A stretch of 64,000 nt of DNA from Anaerohalosphaeraceae bacterium (GTDB lineage: Bacteria > Planctomycetota > Phycisphaerae > Sedimentisphaerales > Anaerohalosphaeraceae): NCBI GenBank assembly GCA_963675525.2, contig CAXXSL010000011.1, positions 178,404 to 242,403 of the forward strand, read 5' to 3'. Below, piece after piece: positions 27,001-36,000 of the stretch; the first letter of the stretch is position 1, and each line of letters opens with the position of its first letter. A program made the position numbers.

Positions 27001-30000
27001 TTCTCCGGAATCGATTAATTTATTTAAATCGATTTCCAATAAAGGATACTGATTCATTGTTTTGTGAAGTGCATCCATTCTGGCAGGAATAGCGATGGTA
27101 TGATTTGACATTTCCAGGCTGTTTTGCAAATTGGTCAGATAGTTGACAAGATCACAATCCAATTTTCTTTGTGTTTGTAATCGGGTTGATGTTGTAATAG
27201 CTAAGTGGCTACCGCCAATGAATGTGTGTGGTCCATCTGTGAATAATTGTGGCAATAAGGCCACTTTAATATGCGAAGAGTCAACGCTATTCTTAAAATA
27301 ATTGTATAAGGCCAATGGTCCTACAAAAGCATCGTAATCTCCCTTTACAAGTCCTGCCGCTTGGTCCATCAATATCGGTTTTCTTTGCGAGGAGGAAGTA
27401 GTTAAATAATATACAAGCCCCTCTTTACTTATATTTCTTAGCTGTAATATTCCATCAATAGCTTCTTCTCTGTTGAACCCCGACTTCCAGTAGAAAAATT
27501 TTTTCTCAATAATCTTCCCGTTCCAAAAATATCGGAGTGTGTTGTGTAAGATGTCCCAATTTCTTTCTAAGGTCACACAAAAGGGAGATTTTCCAGTTTT
27601 CTCTTTACGTTGGATAAGACACTTATGAAACATTTCAAAGTTTTGTATTAAATTCACGTCGTCCGTTAACTCCAATCTGTAAAAAAGCACACGGAGATCA
27701 AATTGCCAAGGAACAGCATAAAAGTTATTATTATGTTGACAGCTGCGAAGGATTTTTTCTGGATAATTTTCTGAATCGATGTTTTGTTGCCATTTGTCTA
27801 TAATGTTCTGATCAATTAGATGAGTTGTCCATGTGCTGGGAACCTGAATGATGTTGAATTCTGAATGAAGTGATTTTATTTCATTAAGAGATTGCGTCCA
27901 GGATGCAAAGTGAATCTTTATCTTAACGTCTTGTGCTTTGGCAAAATCAGAAAGTGTATCACAAATCCAGTGCTGTTTGCCCAATTCTAAGTCTTCCCAT
28001 TCTTTAAGGGTGTTATCAAAAATCAAATACGGTGAGTATTTCACGTCGTCAAAAGAGAAAGGCTGAATTTCTTGATCAATTGGCTCAAGGGGCATTAAAA
28101 GGATTGAGATTTCGTTTCCGAAAACTGCTGAGGGTGAGAAAAACCCGAAAAGAAAAATTAAGGACCTTATTAAATATTTTACAAAGAAACGTTTTCCCGC
28201 AAACATTGCTCTTGTATCGTCCATTTATAGACTCCTTAGTGAGATTTACCTGCTGCTTAACTTACCCTCATAGCAGTAAAAATCACCCAATAATATACAT
28301 TGTTTTTTTAGATAACACAAGGTCATTTTGTGGCAAAAGTCTCCAGTAACGAGTTGGATCATCCGGTTAAAATATTCAATCTCACCTATAAAAAGCCCCT
28401 TTCCGCGGACTGTCCGCAGACAGGACAATATTACAGAGAGGCTGGACAATAAAATAGTGGGTGACTAATTGTGAAAAAGTTTGAATCGAGGCGCAAATTA
28501 AATGACAACAAAAAAACTTAAAAAGTATAAGAGAAAAAGAAAAGTTGTTTTGAAGGTTATCTTCGTGGGAAGCCACCCGGACGATATCGAACTGGGTTGT
28601 GGAGGCTCCGTGTCATATTACATAGAAAAAGGCTATGATGTCTGGTGCATTTTTTTGACAAAAGGAGAAAAAGGACTTGGACCCAAAAATGCTTCGGATA
28701 ATCGAGTCAGCGAGTCAATTGAGGCGCTTCACTACCTAGGCGTCAAAAGGGAAAATATTGTTTTCGGGGATTTTGAGGATACACGGATTCCGGGCTCGTT
28801 TGAAGTAATTCATTTTCTTGAAGCGTTTAATTTTGGCAATCCGGAAGATATTTACGCGGTCTTTTTTCATTCTGAGTCTGATTATCATCAGGACCATCAG
28901 GTGACCTCAAAGGCTTGCCAAACGGCTTTTCGTCATGTCAGACGCATGCTAATGTACGAATCTCCCTCGGTTACGTCATCATTTGCTCCTTCTGTTTTTA
29001 TCGATATTAGTGCCTATATCAGAAGAAAAATCCATGCCTTGCGATGCCATAAAAGTCAAACAGCTCAACAGAAAATTTATATGGAGTACAAGGCAATGAT
29101 GTGCATCAGCCGATTTCGTGGGCATCAGATTGGAAAACGATATGCCGAAGCATTTGAAAGTAAAAGATACCTTATGACGTAGTACATCTTGGACGGCGGA
29201 CTGTCCGCGGACAAGACAGTATTACGGAAAACGATATCAAAAAAGACAACAGACGAATAATGATTAATTGCATGAGAGGATAATTTATGAATTCAGGAAT
29301 AAATCAACCAAATCCCAACCCAGAAGTCGTTCGTTTAGTGGATTCGATGTTAAATCAACTGAGAATGAAGCCGGACACAGGATTGGCAATGGTTAAGCAG
29401 ACATTGAGCAGACAGCCTGAATTAGTCAGATTGGTGTTGATTGAAAGACTGGCTAAACACTATTCGACATCAAATCCTGAGTATCTGCGGAAAATTGAAA
29501 CTCAAATCAAGCTTTTGAAACAAGCACCTCGCAACTTAGCTATTTTGGAGGCGGTAAGAGATGATGAAATGGGCAGGTTTGCAACTGTCAAGGACGGGAA
29601 CACACTGTCGGAAGTGGAGGTGTCCGGCGACGTAACAGAAGAAGAATTGGTCCCGGGATGCCGAGTTGTCCTGCCAAAAATGGCTGGAGCCATCGTAGGG
29701 ACCAGAGGCTTGTCCCCGGCTTGTCCAGCAGCAGAATTTGAACGAGTTCTTTCCGACGGCCGCCTGTTGATGAAAATCGGCACTGAACATCTCGTCCTGG
29801 GGCGGGGAGGTGAATTAACCAGTGAAGAAGTAATACAAAAGTTAAAACCTGGAGATTTGCTGGAATACGAGACTGCGATTAATTGCGCCCTTAGAATTGC
29901 GCAGAAATCTGTCAAAACCGCACAGTATATTAATGAACCCCCAGATGTGGATTGGAAAGACGTTGGCGGGATGGAAGAAATCAAAGAAACCATCGAACGT

Positions 30001-33000: not shown

Positions 33001-36000
33001 CATGTATTGTTGGACTTGGAGCCATTGGCAGTGCATGTAACTATATTCTTGGATGTTTTGATAATCCCGAGCTTTCCCTGGATTATATCGACTCAGATAA
33101 AATTGAACCCAGCAATGAAGAGCGGTTGTTCACGAGTTCTCAGCCTGTAAAAGACATCAATAAACTCAAGGTAATTCACGCCCAACAATTTATGAAAGCG
33201 ATGAATCAAAAAGCACACACCTTTCCCTATGGTATGCCGCTTGAACGCTTTGTTGAACTGTCACGTGACCGCCTTGGTTACATTTTTTGCTGCCTGGACA
33301 ATGGAGCTGTTCGTCGAAGATTACAAACAGAATTGGGCAGTGTTATTGCCAATGGCGGAACTGATATGTCGCGATGGATGGTTTCCATACATGAATACGC
33401 TCGTCCGGAAAATGCCTGTTTATTTGATTTGTATAAAGATCGGAACGAAGATCAACCTGACATTGTACACCAGTTGGCGGACAGGCTGAAAATTAGTGTT
33501 AATGAGCTATTGCAGTTGCAACGAATAGGTAATCGCAGAATTGATGGTTCAGTCATCATCAAAGCGATCCAACAAGAGCCGGACCCGGTCAAGAAAAAGA
33601 TGATTTCCCGTTATGCAGGTCTTACGTACGAACTAGCATTGGCTCAGGTTTGCACACAAGGTTCCCCCAATAAGGCATTGCCTGCCGCAACGATAAGTTT
33701 TGTTTCTCTTATTCCGTCCGTACTGATGGTTGCGGATTTTGTTAAACGCCGCATTTATGGATGGAATCTTCCCAAAAATTCACCAAATGTGATTCAGGCG
33801 GACAGTTTTCGCCAAGTCGATAAAGCGACTGCAATTAACGTTCTGGCTTCAGATAAATGCTTTTGTCAATCAGAAAAGTACGTTCAGGCCTTTGAGAAAC
33901 GTCAGAAGATACGGAATCCTCATTTAAATAAAACTTTCCTGGAACCTGCCGGCCAGATAAACGTTCCACGTTGTCCGCCTGTACGTCCCAGACCATACAT
34001 CAGGCCACGTCCTGTGGTGCCCCGTCCGCAGGTCCCCAACCACCCACAAGCCGGAAAACCTCTTCAGGTTCCCCTGCCGCCGCCTGTTCAGCCTGTGGCT
34101 CCAAAGCAACCAACTGAAGTTCCCTGCTTCCCATCTCCTCAAACCTGTTGTTTTGCGTTCTTTATTTATCTATCGGGCATGATTGGCTCATTAGTTCTCA
34201 TAAGCCTGTATGTAAAATACCAAATTCAGGCCGATCATCTGCCCATACCATGGAAAATAATTATGTTCGGTTGGGAAGCAGGCATAACAATTGAAGGATG
34301 GTTAAAATATTCCGTAGTCTCTAGTATACCTGCGATATCATATTACTTCTTTATGAAACTTGCGATCTATTTAATGAAAAGTAAAAAGGGAAAGATGACT
34401 CTTCAGAATGGAACACAAGAAACGTATGAAATCGGAACCCGGTGGGCCAGTAAGTTTTTGGCGATATTATTCCAAATTACAGGACTGCCATTTATATATT
34501 TTTCAGTTATGGCATTTGGAGCGACCAATATCCGGGCACTTTTAAAAAGCTGTATATTTTTGTCAGACATGACCTGCTGTGCAGTGGTTCCCCTATCTCT
34601 ATTTTTTTTCTCTTTTGTTATTTTCATTTTTTCAGCAATTGGATTGATTCAAATAGGAGAAACGACTCAAAAAAGATGCGACGGGATCTTTAATCTTCCA
34701 ACAAGAAAAAAGTGACAAGACAGGCAAAAACTTGGTCGAGTAGACGTAATATGGACCTTTTGCGTAGACTTACTTTGTATTCCCTGTTGCTCCCCTCTTT
34801 CGATTGGGGAGTGTCACAGTATTTTGACATACAAAAGGCTGACCTCCAGCAAGACTGCGGGAACATGAACAATGTGAAATTCGCATAAACTGTGGATCAG
34901 GAATGGGGAGCAGGGCATAAGTCGTATAGCGCCTGACATAGCGCGCATGCCGCATTACCCCGCATTTATACGCGCATGGATGCACCATCAAATAAATAGT
35001 ACTGGGTGGGGAACTTTCCGACAAGTGACTTGAAACACTCAATTTAAGGCTGAAAATCAAGCTTTTCTCCACAACTACAAAATAGCGGGCGATCGGAATC
35101 GAACCGACATGACTAGCTTGGAAGGCTAGGGCTTTACCATTAAGCTACGCCCGCATCATCCATTAATGCGAATGAGGGGTGATTATACAGACCGGAACCG
35201 CTACTGACAAGGGCTTATTGAAAAAATTCCTAACCGATTATATTATATCGGGTTAGAATCTGCGTACGGCAACCAGAATAACGCCGGCCATCATAAACAG
35301 GATTGCCGAATCAGGCTCGGGCACTGCCGTTGCATACAACGATGAAATCGCTGCGACATCAAACTCCGACAACGTGGTATCCTCATTCCACCAACTTGAA
35401 TACCCATACATCGTCAGCCCTTTGTTGCCGCTGCCCATCCATTCCTGCCAGCCGGACTGTCCGGGATCATACAGGTCGTTGAGACCGTAGATGTGCCCGG
35501 CTTCATGCAGGGCAATATGTTCGACGTAAAAACCGCCGGACTGCAAACCATCGCTATCCGTCCGCCAGTCAAAGTTGATATCGTTAAAATACATATCACG
35601 TTCTAAAACGGTTCCGGAAACGGGCGAATACCACGTCATAACAACCGCAATGGCATTATGTGAAAGCCCCAGCATATCGGTCCACGGATCCTCGTAACCG
35701 TAACCGGAATCGATCCAGGAAATATCATTCGTACCGTTAATGCTACCGGGAGTAAATCCGGCTGTGCCGATAACTTCTGAGACACGGAGATCCGCACTGG
35801 GCAGGTTCACCCATGTTTCGAACGCATTTCGGACCGCTTCAAAATCGCTGCCATCCGAAATATCGCTTGCGCCGTTGACGAATCGGAAGGTATAGTCGTT
35901 TCGAGGGTTATAATCACTTCCTGTCATTCGGTCGACATTGTTCAGCGAAATTGATTCGGTTTGCATTACCACCTCTTCCAGCTGCGCCGCAGCGGTCTGT

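Follow-up and report, generated by a model that had tools for sequence, protein, structure and literature searches.

A Bil-type ubiquitin-like conjugation operon joined to an Mpa-clade AAA+ ATPase in a bacterium without a 20S proteasome

What might a proteasomal-type ATPase do beside a ubiquitin-like (Ubl) conjugation module in a bacterium where no proteasome is found? The question is raised by an operon in a 64,000-nucleotide stretch of an Anaerohalosphaeraceae genome (the window), in which an Mpa-clade AAA+ ATPase precedes a Ubl, E2, JAB and E1 of BilABCD type. The five co-directional genes of a preliminary description are confirmed, all on the + strand: the ATPase (29287-30957, 556 aa), a predicted BilA-like Ubl (30983-31357, 124 aa), a predicted BilB-like E2 (31339-31770, 143 aa from its ATG), a BilC-like JAB/JAMM peptidase (31772-32296, 174 aa) and a BilD-like E1 (32313-34715, 800 aa), with intergenic gaps of 25, -19, 1 and 16 nt in that order. 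A longer GTG ORF for the E2 begins at 31300; the MPDP read from the ATG is invariant in all six aligned homologs. We reproduced the Pfam scores reported earlier (AAA 7.5e-22, Prot_ATP_ID_OB_C 3.9e-4, Prok-JAB 2.6e-4, ThiF 2e-9) and those of PADLOC (BilC 1.7e-11, BilD 1.5e-15), which returned no match for the Ubl or E2 at E<=1. The reported absence of 20S and Pup from the host likewise stands: PF00227 and PF03136 had no match in this genome (99.52% complete), in which neither a 20S/HslV subunit nor a Pup ligase was found, and as positive controls the two profiles matched in 10 and 1 of 14 genomes respectively.

The earlier count of gene order had been made from the E1, and we checked it in the converse direction with loci centred on the ATPase. 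The ATPase family was present in all three genome loci and in five of the best 80 of at least 294 confirmed metagenome loci. Ubl, E2 and JAB lie downstream in seven of these eight, with the E1 next in all five that reach it, which bears out the order; L004 stops within the ATPase, and L001 and L002 are near-identical. The ATPase family is small, at about six independent loci, and the E1 family, formerly put at 22 clusters with 12 of 765-800 aa, came to 18 proteins with 10 of that length in a new search. Sequence, profile, fold and synteny tests agree in tying a Bil-type module genetically to a proteasomal-type ATPase in a host without 20S or Pup ligase.

The ATPase consists of N-terminal helices and a coiled coil, two OB-like strand blocks and one AAA module with an Mpa-type C-terminal strand insert, and has no HbYX/GQYL tail at its C-terminus. 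It had been called Mpa/PAN-like, of which NCBIfam, Foldseek and the tree support the first half and not the second: the best NCBIfam model, TIGR03689, scores 207 bits across residues 54-517 against a cut-off of 504.75 that it does not reach, and the first 11 Foldseek hits for the AF2 model (pLDDT 78.5) are Mpa structures, led by 7pxb (E 2.9e-29). Walker A (GxPGxGKT; G265/P267/G268/G270/K271/T272), G309, sensor 1 (N384) and the Arg fingers R395 and R398 are invariant in 21/21 aligned members, all of which also have an aromatic residue at position 307 and keep E340, two residues past the Walker B motif; this invariance suggests a motor under selection. Walker B itself (LLDDFEY) has no catalytic Glu. 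Its DD, noted before in all seven ATPases then aligned, recurs in 24 of 25 readable members, and as the exception (P0014) reads DE, D and E interchange at this site; the tallied sister ATPases from Pup loci read DE. The residue before the pore aromatic is Ser or Pro in the family, whereas actinobacterial Mpa strictly keeps Lys. Nine of 17 private changes of the window copy at conserved columns fall in the pore-loop region, residues 300-362 (hypergeometric P = 0.001, for a region picked post hoc), and its four nearest relatives (75-79% identity) have 0-1 there. Given the DD Walker B and these altered pore loops, we retain from the earlier label of unfoldase that the protein is a proteasomal-type ATPase, which may unfold its substrates.

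The Ubl appears to be a BilA-like single beta-grasp protein, with a polar N-terminal extension some 25 residues long (22-27), one ubiquitin-like domain, Gly106 and an 18-residue tail. The conserved Gly and variable tail described previously hold among homologs (A104 and G106 invariant in 6/6; tails of 6-18 residues). Against PDB the family profile finds ubiquitin chains; polyubiquitin scores 1.8e-8, but taken per domain the match is weak (E 0.03-0.8 for single chains), and the homolog in L003 reaches PF00240 at E 0.063. The E2 retains Cys97, as claimed, and His108 in 6/6; the top of its two PDB profile matches is the weak one to E2(BilB) 8tyz_C (E 0.21), with C97 aligned on the catalytic Cys, and the L003 homolog matches DUF7665 at 1.4e-5. 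E39, H97, H99, S106 and D109 of the JAB are invariant in 5/5.

The E1 has inactive and active adenylation domains, a Pro/Arg-rich linker (548-605) and a C-terminal helical membrane domain. R10, the glycines of GxGxxG 234-239 (G234/G236/G239), D257, S267-N268-x-E270-R271, D329, the catalytic C447 and the metal site C369/D372/C516/C518 are invariant in 16/16. By profile its top PDB match is BilD 8tyz (2e-11), R10 falling on BilD Arg9, and for the structure model (pLDDT 62.5) 8tyz again ranks first, at 1.6e-11 in Foldseek and with Z 17.7 and rmsd 16.4 over 303 aligned residues in VIA-align. Conserved residues across E1, E2, JAB and Ubl suggest that the Bil chemistry is intact. The membrane domain (34140..34655, + strand; residues ~610-781), a helical bundle by model and hydropathy, for which no convincing family or fold match was found, shows between 3 and 6 hydrophobic stretches in each homolog. 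All ten full-length homologs contain a CC pair, nine of them at the aligned position, and end in a basic tail with 2-6 K/R among the last 12 residues. Membrane anchoring of the E1, part of the original definition of the operon, is common and not defining: the domain is missing from 5 of 16 E1 tree rows and was lost in at least two subclades.

The relatives of the ATPase indicate where this pairing came from. Sister ATPases occur in 6/401 phylum genomes, in all six with Dop-like, Pup-like (GGQ/GGE-ending) and PafA-like genes downstream, in loci (L095-L100) of the order RING-E1-E2-X-Ubl-JAB-ATPase-Dop-Pup-PafA; four of the five such genomes tested have no PF00227 match, the remaining one carrying an HslV-like gene. 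Intermediate loci retain the RING-E1-E2-X-Ubl-JAB half with a Bil module in place of Dop-Pup-PafA. Orthologs of the upstream module persist in L001-L004, and profiles of the sister upstream genes pick out the L002-L004 module among 673 ORFs at 8e-32 (E1), 5e-8 (E2), 1e-8 (JAB), 7e-7 (Ubl) and 0.024 (RING), while the window, L081 and L082 are without it and have a full-length ATPase directly before the Ubl. Because relatives of the ATPase sit in Dop-Pup-PafA loci and the intermediate loci keep the upstream half alongside a Bil module, the operon most likely arose when one tagging module was exchanged for another beside a motor that stayed, Bil replacing Dop-Pup-PafA, and the upstream module was most likely lost later in the window lineage. 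The linkage behind the earlier proposal of a distinct five-gene Bil operon is real, and the five genes are a reduced form of a longer locus. The tree places the DD family in a single clade (16/16, 100/100), and a 100/98 branch parts it and the Pup-locus ATPases from Mpa and PAN; the DD was set at the clade base, where the stem is long (1.03 changes per column), and the nearest outside relative is P0144, the six Pup-locus ATPases not being a direct sister. PF00227 is absent from the genomes of the window, L081 and L082, that of L083 having only HslV, and PF03136 is absent from G000 (the window genome), G222, G402 and G403.

The operon is carried along in a tRNA-linked cassette of eight genes, the remaining three of which encode a PIG-L deacetylase, a sugar-binding membrane regulator and a secreted hydrolase. 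The PIG-L/LmbE gene (28502..29182, +; PF02585 1.1e-18) adjoins the ATPase in G222 and has a 41% homolog in L002; two close PIG-L homologs and two ATPase homologs lie on contigs of equal size (15003 and 15585), which is linkage by proxy. The divergent membrane sensor/regulator (25060..28224, -, 1054 aa; NCBIfam GanS-like SBP 2.5e-6) has a signal or TM segment, a sugar-binding SBP domain, a TM at 468-486 and a cytoplasmic part of uncertain fold, with winged-helix/TPR as a lead only (score 0.81); its counterpart in G222 (SBP_bac_8 2.2e-12; 40% over residues 27-459) has a different cytoplasmic part. The secreted alpha/alpha-toroid protein (23001..24983, -, 660 aa) is a probable glycoside hydrolase, judging from GlcNAc_2-epim at 7.6e-4 (below cut-off) and an alpha-1,6-mannanase match at E 0.014; it has a 70% homolog in G222 and a 23% homolog at the head of the L002 operon (pairwise E 4e-6). 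A candidate operator, the palindrome TGTCCGCGGACA (29202..29213, +), lies 74 nt upstream of the ATPase start. The 4.12-Mb genome holds three perfect copies, all in the window (21140, 22872, 29202), and eight strand matches (four sites) compare with 0.48 expected, a number reached in 0/100 shuffles; L081 has a one-base variant upstream of its ATPase. The second candidate copy (28411..28422, +), between the regulator and PIG-L genes, lies in a direct repeat of 33 nt that agrees at 88% with the copy at 29196, and G222 has a similar site in the same place. A tRNA-Gly (35084..35154, -; ARAGORN) marks the right edge of a low-GC island at ~17-35 kb (GC 0.35-0.45 vs 0.485 for the contig), and this side of the tRNA is taken up in G525 by other genes, among them an integrase. 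Distribution is patchy, with 2/401 class genomes positive and three other congeners searched negative.

Gene content, conserved catalytic residues, linkage, the synteny series and the absence of 20S and Pup ligase are what we observe, and we give about an even chance to the explanation that the operon tags proteins and then unfolds or extracts them without degradation. By homology with BilABCD, the JAB would trim the Ubl after Gly106, the E1 would adenylate it and hand it from Cys447 to Cys97 of the E2, and the E2 would join it to a lysine of the target with no E3 involved. The C-terminal helices of the E1 may keep this chemistry at the inner membrane, which would make proteins in or bound to the membrane the probable targets; Pup ligases of Rhodopirellula and Plesiocystis are 4-TM-anchored and proteasome-unlinked (PMC2588565). 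The Mpa-like hexamer could then capture the conjugate, taking in the polar N-terminal stretch of the Ubl (22-27 residues) as Mpa does with Pup, whose disordered N-terminus is the threader and covers the distance up to the pore rim with ~15+7 residues (PMC8755798). This stretch supports threading weakly, because in the available part of the Chambers preprint Bil Ubls without an ATPase are also extended. The hexamer might slowly unfold, extract or disassemble the target, as the proteasome-free ARC of C. glutamicum takes apart pupylated ferritin (PMC8223512), and the JAB might afterwards free the tag. Since there is neither an HbYX tail nor a 20S in the genome, the product would be remodelled, and the probable fate of a tagged protein is to be taken apart or drawn out of the membrane, not destroyed. 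As to the biological trigger, we lean, at slightly under an even chance, to a phage or other invader, with the glycan-sensing cassette partners a tentative candidate and some other stress an unlikely one.

Several observations count against tagging followed by remodelling: the DD Walker B, the lost Lys before the pore aromatic, the pore-loop changes of the window copy, loss of the E1 membrane domain, the small ATPase family, the DD clade not being a direct sister of the Pup-locus ATPases, and, in L001-L003, an ATPase that could serve the upstream Ubl and not the Bil Ubl. Some of these would suit an ATP-bound ring with negligible hydrolysis that holds or clusters Ubl conjugates (e.g. tagged phage proteins) without threading, which we regard as unlikely. 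The D2 domain of NSF, also DD, shows little hydrolysis, and DD at the base of the long-stemmed clade and the missing Lys fit this picture; DnaA-type AAA+ proteins hydrolyse ATP with DD, however, and the family keeps sensor 1, both Arg fingers, the pore aromatic-Gly and E340 in 21/21, with P0014 reading DE. A further precedent for a clamp is Pex6 D1, an AAA domain without Walker B Asp-Glu that is held non-hydrolysing (PMC6696164).

There is a smaller chance that the locus is an ordinary Bil anti-phage system whose ATPase, a leftover of an ancestral Ubl-Pup locus or a partner of the upstream Ubl only, is decaying in the window copy, as its pore-loop changes might suggest. Four genes suffice in known Bil, which tags the phage central tail fibre, according to the portion available of bioRxiv 10.1101/2023.09.04.556158, and patchy, tRNA- and integrase-linked occurrence would fit; but the ATPase is full length before the Ubl even in the three loci without the upstream module, its four closest relatives have 0-1 private changes of their own in the pore region, canonical Bil operons have neither ATPase nor membrane E1 in the published passages covered, the cassette neighbours are glycan-related, and of the eight genes PADLOC matches three, the ATPase (by generic AAA models), the JAB and the E1. 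We are equally doubtful that the ring feeds what it unfolds into ClpP, Lon or FtsH through a short hydrophobic C-terminal tail. Many family ATPases do end in acidic plus hydrophobic residues (EIMA, ELIA, ECFVA, ESFLA), the host has two further AAA matches on contig C16, and the accessible text of Kaur et al. (PMC7159879) connects related Ubl systems with the degradation of targets and with FtsH; yet these tails vary in sequence and length, no protease gene occurs in the family loci examined, and the host is without HslV.

Tagging and remodelling thus remains our preferred reading of a rare mobile cassette that joins antiviral-defence-type Ubl tagging to a proteasome-related unfolding-ring motor in a proteasome-free bacterium; beyond the preliminary description, what is new is the probable origin of the ATPase among Dop-Pup-PafA loci and the likely exchange of tagging modules beside it. 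Searches of the literature found no Bil-Mpa pairing. With BilABCD Types I and II, as far as the available parts of their descriptions go (bioRxiv 10.1101/2023.09.26.559546; 10.1101/2023.09.04.556158; PDB 8TYZ/8TZ0), the operon shares the order Ubl-E2-JAB-E1, an IAD-AAD-CYS E1 with the IAD Arg, the Cys and His of the E2, a Ubl with a conserved Gly and removable tail, and a module without E3. It differs from them in the Mpa-clade ATPase in front, the Pro-rich linker and membrane domain of most E1s, a C-x-x-D in place of C-x-x-C metal site, absence in the window system of the Type II Glu/His of the CEHH motif, a single beta-grasp (unlike Type I), Ubl tails of up to 18 residues and no PADLOC BilA/BilB match. 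For Thermofonsia and Planctomycetes, what is available of Kaur et al. 2020 (PMC7159879) describes a coupling of Ubl and Pup conjugation; these Ubl-Pup loci (L095-L100) share with ours a broad clade of HbYX-less Mpa-like ATPases, their C-terminal PxN...LP motif, the lack of a 20S and, in L001-L004, upstream-module orthologs, whereas here a Bil module replaces Dop, Pup and PafA, Walker B is DD instead of DE, and the upstream module too is missing from the window. Bacterial Ubl conjugation also stands beside an AAA+ ATPase in the FtsH-ternary conflict systems of the same partly available source, which have a tri-ligase Ubl cassette, and Bub operons (PMC11601596) are likewise mobile, ubiquitination-like and of unsettled role; in contrast to both (PMC7159879; PMC11601596), the present system has no MoxR/vWA/EAD1/FtsH, and its E1 and E2 are Cys-based and not Tyr/Ser oxyester enzymes. 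Actinobacterial Mpa/ARC, including the proteasome-free Corynebacterium glutamicum ARC (TIGR03689; PDB 7PXB, 5KWA), resembles the ATPase in coiled coil, double OB, AAA module, C-terminal strand insert and an aromatic-hydrophobic-Gly pore loop. The window protein is only 20-25% identical to it, with no GQYL and a DD Walker B, and its tag would be a folded beta-grasp Ubl attached by E1/E2 instead of Pup attached by PafA. In eukaryotes Cdc48/p97 drives extraction of ubiquitinated membrane proteins. Unlike it, the window motor is single-ring and Mpa-type, with no E3 in this form and no proteasome downstream; the likeness, an AAA+ ring that would read a ubiquitin-like tag at a membrane, is one of functional analogy only and not of ancestry.

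The five genes lie closely spaced on the plus strand of the window, where open reading frames were recovered for the ATPase (29287-30957), the ubiquitin-like protein (Ubl; 30983-31357), the E2 (31339-31770), the JAB peptidase (31772-32296) and the E1 (32313-34715), all at the positions assigned to them by the preliminary description. The Pfam and PADLOC scores reported there returned the same values on rerun, and its claim that the genome has no 20S proteasome or Pup is supported for the 20S and for the Pup ligase, as the genome holding the window (4.12 Mb, 99.52% complete) gives no match to PF00227 (proteasome/HslV) or PF03136 (Pup ligase/Dop) with controls that worked. 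Pup ligase/Dop and 20S genes were found neither in this genome (99.5% complete) nor in G222, a comparison genome that carries the same operon. The operon is genuine, conserved and rare, and is the union of two known kinds of system, Bil tagging (BilABCD: Ubl, E2, JAB, E1) and an Mpa-type motor; a doubtful Walker B, a small sample and an optional membrane anchor are the caveats on this reading.

Loci centred on the ATPase comprise at least five metagenome family members, among the 80 loci listed of 294 confirmed, and three of three genome loci. The gene order described previously is borne out: Ubl, E2 and JAB stand downstream of the ATPase in seven of the eight loci listed, the eighth (L004) being cut, and the E1 follows wherever the locus is long enough to reach it (5/5). 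L001 nearly duplicates L002, and L081 and G222:C49 are one and the same stretch, so these represent about six independent loci in addition to the window. The system occurs in 2 of 401 genomes in a phylum sample (a stricter first look), in 2 of 401 in a class sample and in 1 of 251 genomes of the order to which the comparison genome G403 belongs, and it was not found in the three other congeners searched. A viral origin was rejected, with none of 34 pattern matches from viral contigs confirmed in the E1 alignment, and the 12 ATPase loci in viral contigs are generic AAA matches at 23-34%.

The ATPase had been called Mpa/PAN-like, of which the Mpa part stands by NCBIfam score and fold and the PAN part does not. 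Its top NCBIfam model is TIGR03689 (Mpa/ARC; 207 bits over residues 54-517, with the curated cut-off of 504.75 bits unreached), and three other members of the family score 172-217 bits. The AlphaFold2 model (pLDDT 78.5) comprises a coiled coil, two blocks of strands, a single AAA module and a strand insert at the C-terminus; in Foldseek searches with it, Mpa structures take all of ranks 1-11. The build is that of Mpa/ARC, with a coiled coil, two OB domains, an AAA module and a beta-grasp-like insert, the last identified from secondary structure and the full-length alignment rather than from a separate superposition. Identity as PAN or Cdc48 was rejected, since Mpa gives the long single match, scores best in NCBIfam and fits best by fold; Cdc48 heads the sequence-only PDB list because the scores of its two AAA modules sum. 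The family has few members and stands apart: 23 proteins fall at 43-100% identity, and after a gap come Cdc48 and FtsH. The searches also returned P0141, P0149 and P0175, which comprise Mpa-like proteins whose AAA modules number two (894 aa) or several (1401 aa) and an 800-aa protein that is Cdc48-like and has an N-terminus of coiled-coil/OB type.

Within this family the window protein is unusual in its pore. Of the 17 private changes that it shows at conserved columns, nine fall within residues 300-362 (window 30184-30372), which hold the two pore loops (P = 0.001, for a region picked after inspection), where it reads YFGESAAN and GTNDLSTTGDS as against YVGEGPAR and GxGDRSSPAYS in the family; its four closest relatives have 0-1 private changes there. 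Contigs from run X1, which may be the source sample, show no differences from the operon and agree in the pore-loop letters. The substitutions would reflect either altered specificity or early decay. In a locus that is otherwise near-identical to L001, the ATPase open reading frame of L002 (9941-11773) is 610 aa long as against 571 aa, by a 39-residue insertion or an assembly difference.

The tagging module is Bil-like. The E1 is a relative of BilD, which is its best PDB match (8tyz) by profile (2e-11, with R10 aligned on the functional Arg9), by Foldseek (1.6e-11) and by VIA-align (Z 17.7, rmsd 16.4 over 303 residues, for an E1 model of pLDDT 62.5). The adenylation residues and C447 are invariant in 16 of 16 aligned E1s, taken from 18 homologs found, as is the site C369/D372/C516/C518, for which metal binding is plausible; C447 would correspond to BilD C417, in a region where the E1 model is weak. 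In the E2, the Cys97 previously described as invariant is indeed kept in all six homologs, as is H108, and the top PDB match is BilB with the catalytic Cys aligned, at an E value of only 0.21. The Ubl proved, as described, to have a single domain, and its glycine G106 is invariant (6/6) and followed by tails of 6-18 residues; its family profile matches ubiquitin weakly and in register, and it begins with a polar stretch of 22-27 residues. The JAB protein matches PADLOC BilC (1.7e-11) and its metal residues are kept in 5/5. The possibility that this Ubl is a duplicate of a second Ubl encoded upstream in related loci was considered and is unsupported (hhalign probability 13%).

Membrane anchoring of the E1 holds for part of the family only. 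According to the model and hydropathy, the window E1 continues through a Pro/Arg linker into a helical membrane domain, and this domain is present in 11 of the 16 tree rows and absent from five. The losses are confined to two subclades, one of them with a natural stop inside contig L003, and the domain is read as ancestral yet dispensable. Structure-atlas searches with it gave only leads below 0.9, and VIA-align matches to designed helical bundles (Z up to 8.6) were set aside as a common arrangement that implies no relationship.

The operon forms the right half of an eight-gene cassette, whose left half encodes a secreted alpha/alpha-toroid protein, a sugar-binding membrane regulator and a PIG-L deacetylase. 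The same eight genes occur in G222, where a contig break lies inside PIG-L and the neighbours are an integrase and a tRNA-Met gene; in the window's genome the cassette lies in a low-GC stretch ending at a tRNA-Gly gene, a site occupied by another element in G525. The distant locus L002 (ATPase 40-43%) also has a PIG-L gene, at 41%, along with a single-TM protein and a protein homologous to the secreted one (E 4e-6). A 12-bp palindrome, TGTCCGCGGACA, stands before the genes for PIG-L and the ATPase and before two gene groups upstream of them; the three perfect copies that the genome has all lie within 8 kb. Two of these three, at 21140-21151 and 22872-22883, are upstream of minus-strand genes (19671-22523) for two calcineurin-like phosphoesterases, a NIF/HAD phosphatase and a TIM-barrel protein, which may belong to the same regulon as the cassette. 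A sigma-70 scan found no promoter across the palindromes at 28411 and 29202, and 8 sites compared with 13.9 in shuffled sequences, that is, fewer than in the shuffles.

These features, with two lineages as basis, point to a regulated mobile unit that is possibly linked to glycans. One query with the secreted hydrolase, run without a positive control, did not find it in G402, G403, G525, G518 or G574, so the glycan context is limited to the window clade and L001/L002. The sugar-binding half of the membrane regulator is 40% identical between two congeners (window 25060-28224; L116:811-3165), whereas the cytoplasmic halves cannot be aligned; structure-atlas searches with the cytoplasmic part gave only leads below 0.9. 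The end of the window regulator has a motif-level likeness to sigma region 2, with no database match. In L002 a minus-strand group converging on the operon end (16367-21102) comprises PIG-L, a C-type lectin PEP-CTERM protein, a 378-aa sigma-like protein and a 586-aa single-TM protein, the last two being a possible sigma/anti-sigma glycan sensor; neither has a match in the PDB, so the sigma-like and TM-sensor labels are putative and based on motifs. To the left of the island, the window also carries a cluster (2535-19431) of secreted PEP-CTERM-like, dockerin-like and glycoside hydrolase genes, including GH9+CBM30 (13470-16166), GH43/32 (16251-17258) and GH17 (17560-19431).

The genomes also bear on the origin of the operon. 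In L001/L002 and L003 a second module stands before the ATPase, with a ThiF E1, an E2-like protein, an unknown protein X, a YukD-like Ubl ending in IAG or VAGG plus a tail, and a second JAB; a zinc finger/RING-like gene heads it in L001/L002, and the JAB of the module is present in L004, where a 118-aa nucleotide-sugar epimerase/dehydratase fragment (652-1008) lies between it and the ATPase. No part of this module was found in the window's genome. A profile search of 1.84 billion representatives returned related tail-less ATPases with a DE Walker B, and these as queries led to six further genomes of the phylum. Downstream of the ATPase, all six have a Dop-like gene, a small ORF with GGQ or GGE at its end and a PafA-like gene; upstream of it stand a JAB and, where the contig reaches, Prok-RING_1, E1, E2 and Ubl genes. 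Such Ubl+Pup loci with a tail-less Mpa (L095-L100) thus occur in 6 of 401 genomes of the phylum; no 20S was found in the five tested, four of which have no PF00227 match and the fifth an HslV-like gene, and the 67-aa Pup-like ORF of L100 matches no Pfam or NCBIfam model. The arrangement is that of the Planctomycete Ubl+Pup locus (Kaur 2020), with RING-E1-E2-X-Ubl-JAB before and Dop-Pup-PafA after the ATPase; its upstream half is shared with L001-L003 and its JAB with L004, whereas neither half was found in the window's genome. Profiles of the Ubl+Pup upstream genes retrieve the upstream module of L002-L004.

In a 34-row tree the window ATPase family forms one clade (100/100, stem 1.03), which together with the Pup-locus ATPases lies on one side of a 100/98 branch with Mpa and PAN on the other, although the two are not direct sisters; sister to the clade is P0144, which has a DE Walker B. 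The simplest reading is that a Ubl+Pup locus came first, that a Bil module replaced Dop-Pup-PafA and that the upstream module was then lost in the window's lineage, with the DE-to-DD change of Walker B on or near the stem of the replacement. This order has no independent root and is inferred from the Pup form being the more widespread. The operon appears to document the exchange of one tag for another around a single motor. Directly upstream of one Ubl+Pup locus (L096:1127-4202) are genes for a sigma-54 activator and a TIR-domain protein, which hint at a defence context for the parent system. Elsewhere, Mpa-like ATPases ending in DPMVG are followed by a PafA/Dop-like gene (L055:9524-12544, L064:1829-4815, L080:9518-12376; TIGR03689 346-359 bits, TIGR03686 260 bits) on contigs that give the impression of being archaeal from their neighbouring genes.

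Gene content and conservation are what is directly established, and the later steps of any mechanism are a proposal. We give about an even chance to a model in which a target is tagged near the membrane and the ring then unfolds, extracts or disassembles it without degradation; the Ubl would be matured, activated and attached as in Bil, close to the membrane, and the ring would act on the tagged protein. There are precedents: proteasome-free ARC disassembles pupylated ferritin (PMC8223512), and membrane-anchored Pup ligases unlinked to a proteasome are described for a planctomycete (PMC2588565). The N-terminus of Pup serves as a threader of about 22 residues (PMC8755798), close in length to the polar N-terminal stretch of the Ubl. 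A predicted complex of two ATPase N-domains (12-212) with the Ubl (1-106) scored 0.15 against a mark of 0.32, which speaks neither for nor against.

Mpa/ARC has Asp-Glu at Walker B, whereas the DD described for all seven ATPases first aligned holds in 24 of 26 rows, with DE in one (P0014) and no motif found in one fragment; a text search of PMC9599734 gave no mention of such a DD. All 21 aligned ATPases keep Walker A, sensor 1, the two Arg fingers and the aromatic-Gly of the pore, and the aromatic-hydrophobic-Gly pore loop 1 of Mpa/ARC is present as Y/F307, V/F308 and G309 (21/21). The penultimate Tyr of the Mpa/ARC C-terminus (GQYL/HbYX) is lacking in all 26 rows, some of them fragments, whereas the control protein P0085 ends in GQYL. 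Of the other readings, an ATP-bound clamp seems unlikely to us, and plain Bil defence with the ATPase as a relic and delivery of the substrate by the ring to a host protease are each rated slightly lower still. A more specific version of the unfolding and extraction model, which we hold only tentatively and regard as improbable as it stands, sees here the bacterial equivalent of Cdc48-type membrane extraction, put to use in signalling: the anchored E1 would tag the sugar-sensing regulator of the cassette (in other loci, the anti-sigma-like sensor), and the Mpa-derived ring, switched from Pup to Ubl, would pull it out or apart and so turn on the operator-marked genes. If true, this would be a natural proteasomal ATPase that switched tag chemistry from Pup to a ubiquitin fold without a proteasome.

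We found no publication that describes a Bil-type module together with an Mpa-type ATPase, or a membrane-anchored BilD, in a search whose coverage did not extend to Burroughs et al. 2011/2012, the UBact paper, PMC7947786 and the Bil operon supplementary tables, which may list such neighbours. By text search, PMC11601603 mentions no ATPase, AAA, proteasome or membrane, PMC11601596 no ATPase, and the first 300,000 characters of PMC7203096 do not mention UBact; the Chambers and Hor preprints, PMC3417536, PMC11354881, PMC1779556 and PMC6696164 were also consulted. PMC7159879 describes an FtsH-linked Ubl system and, in one sentence, the occurrence of combined Ubl and Pup systems in Thermofonsia and Planctomycetes. 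In the portions of the literature consulted, Bil, CBASS Cap2 and Bub, the bacterial ubiquitination-like pathways that have been characterised, attach a tag and a dedicated reader or motor is not described; here a eukaryote-like E1/E2/Ubl/JAB set is linked to a proteasomal-type ATPase. The genomes form a three-step series around one motor (Ubl+Pup, double-Ubl and Bil-only forms), which bears on whether a bacterial Mpa-type ring recognises and threads a folded ubiquitin-like tag and on the role of Ubl tagging in proteasome-less bacteria, and the fixed DE-to-DD change, which has one natural reversion, is a natural experiment on Walker B chemistry.

Among known tagging systems, Bub operons use Tyr/Ser oxyester chemistry with BubE/DUF6527, whereas the E1 and E2 here have invariant Cys residues and the cassette genes give no Pfam match to BubE/DUF6527. 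BilABCD shares with the window its gene order, Ubl-E2-JAB-E1 (also in five of five family loci reaching the E1), an E1 of inactive and active adenylation domains and a CYS domain with the IAD Arg and catalytic Cys, an E2 with a catalytic Cys and nearby His (C97 and H108), and a Ubl with a conserved Gly and short removable tail alongside a JAB peptidase. Conjugation of the Ubl to lysine and anti-phage activity, as in BilABCD, are putative here. At its structural Zn site BilD has four Cys, where the window E1 family has three (C369, C516 and C518) and an invariant Asp372, with which metal binding is still plausible. Type I BilA consists of two fused ubiquitin-like domains whereas the window Ubl has one domain and 106 residues up to the Gly, and the Type II CEHH motif (Cys138, Glu144, His146, His151) differs from the window E2 family, in which neither a Glu at +6 nor a His at +8 of C97 is conserved, its conserved His being at +11. 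By its one domain and its lack of CEHH, the tagging module is neither Type I nor Type II.
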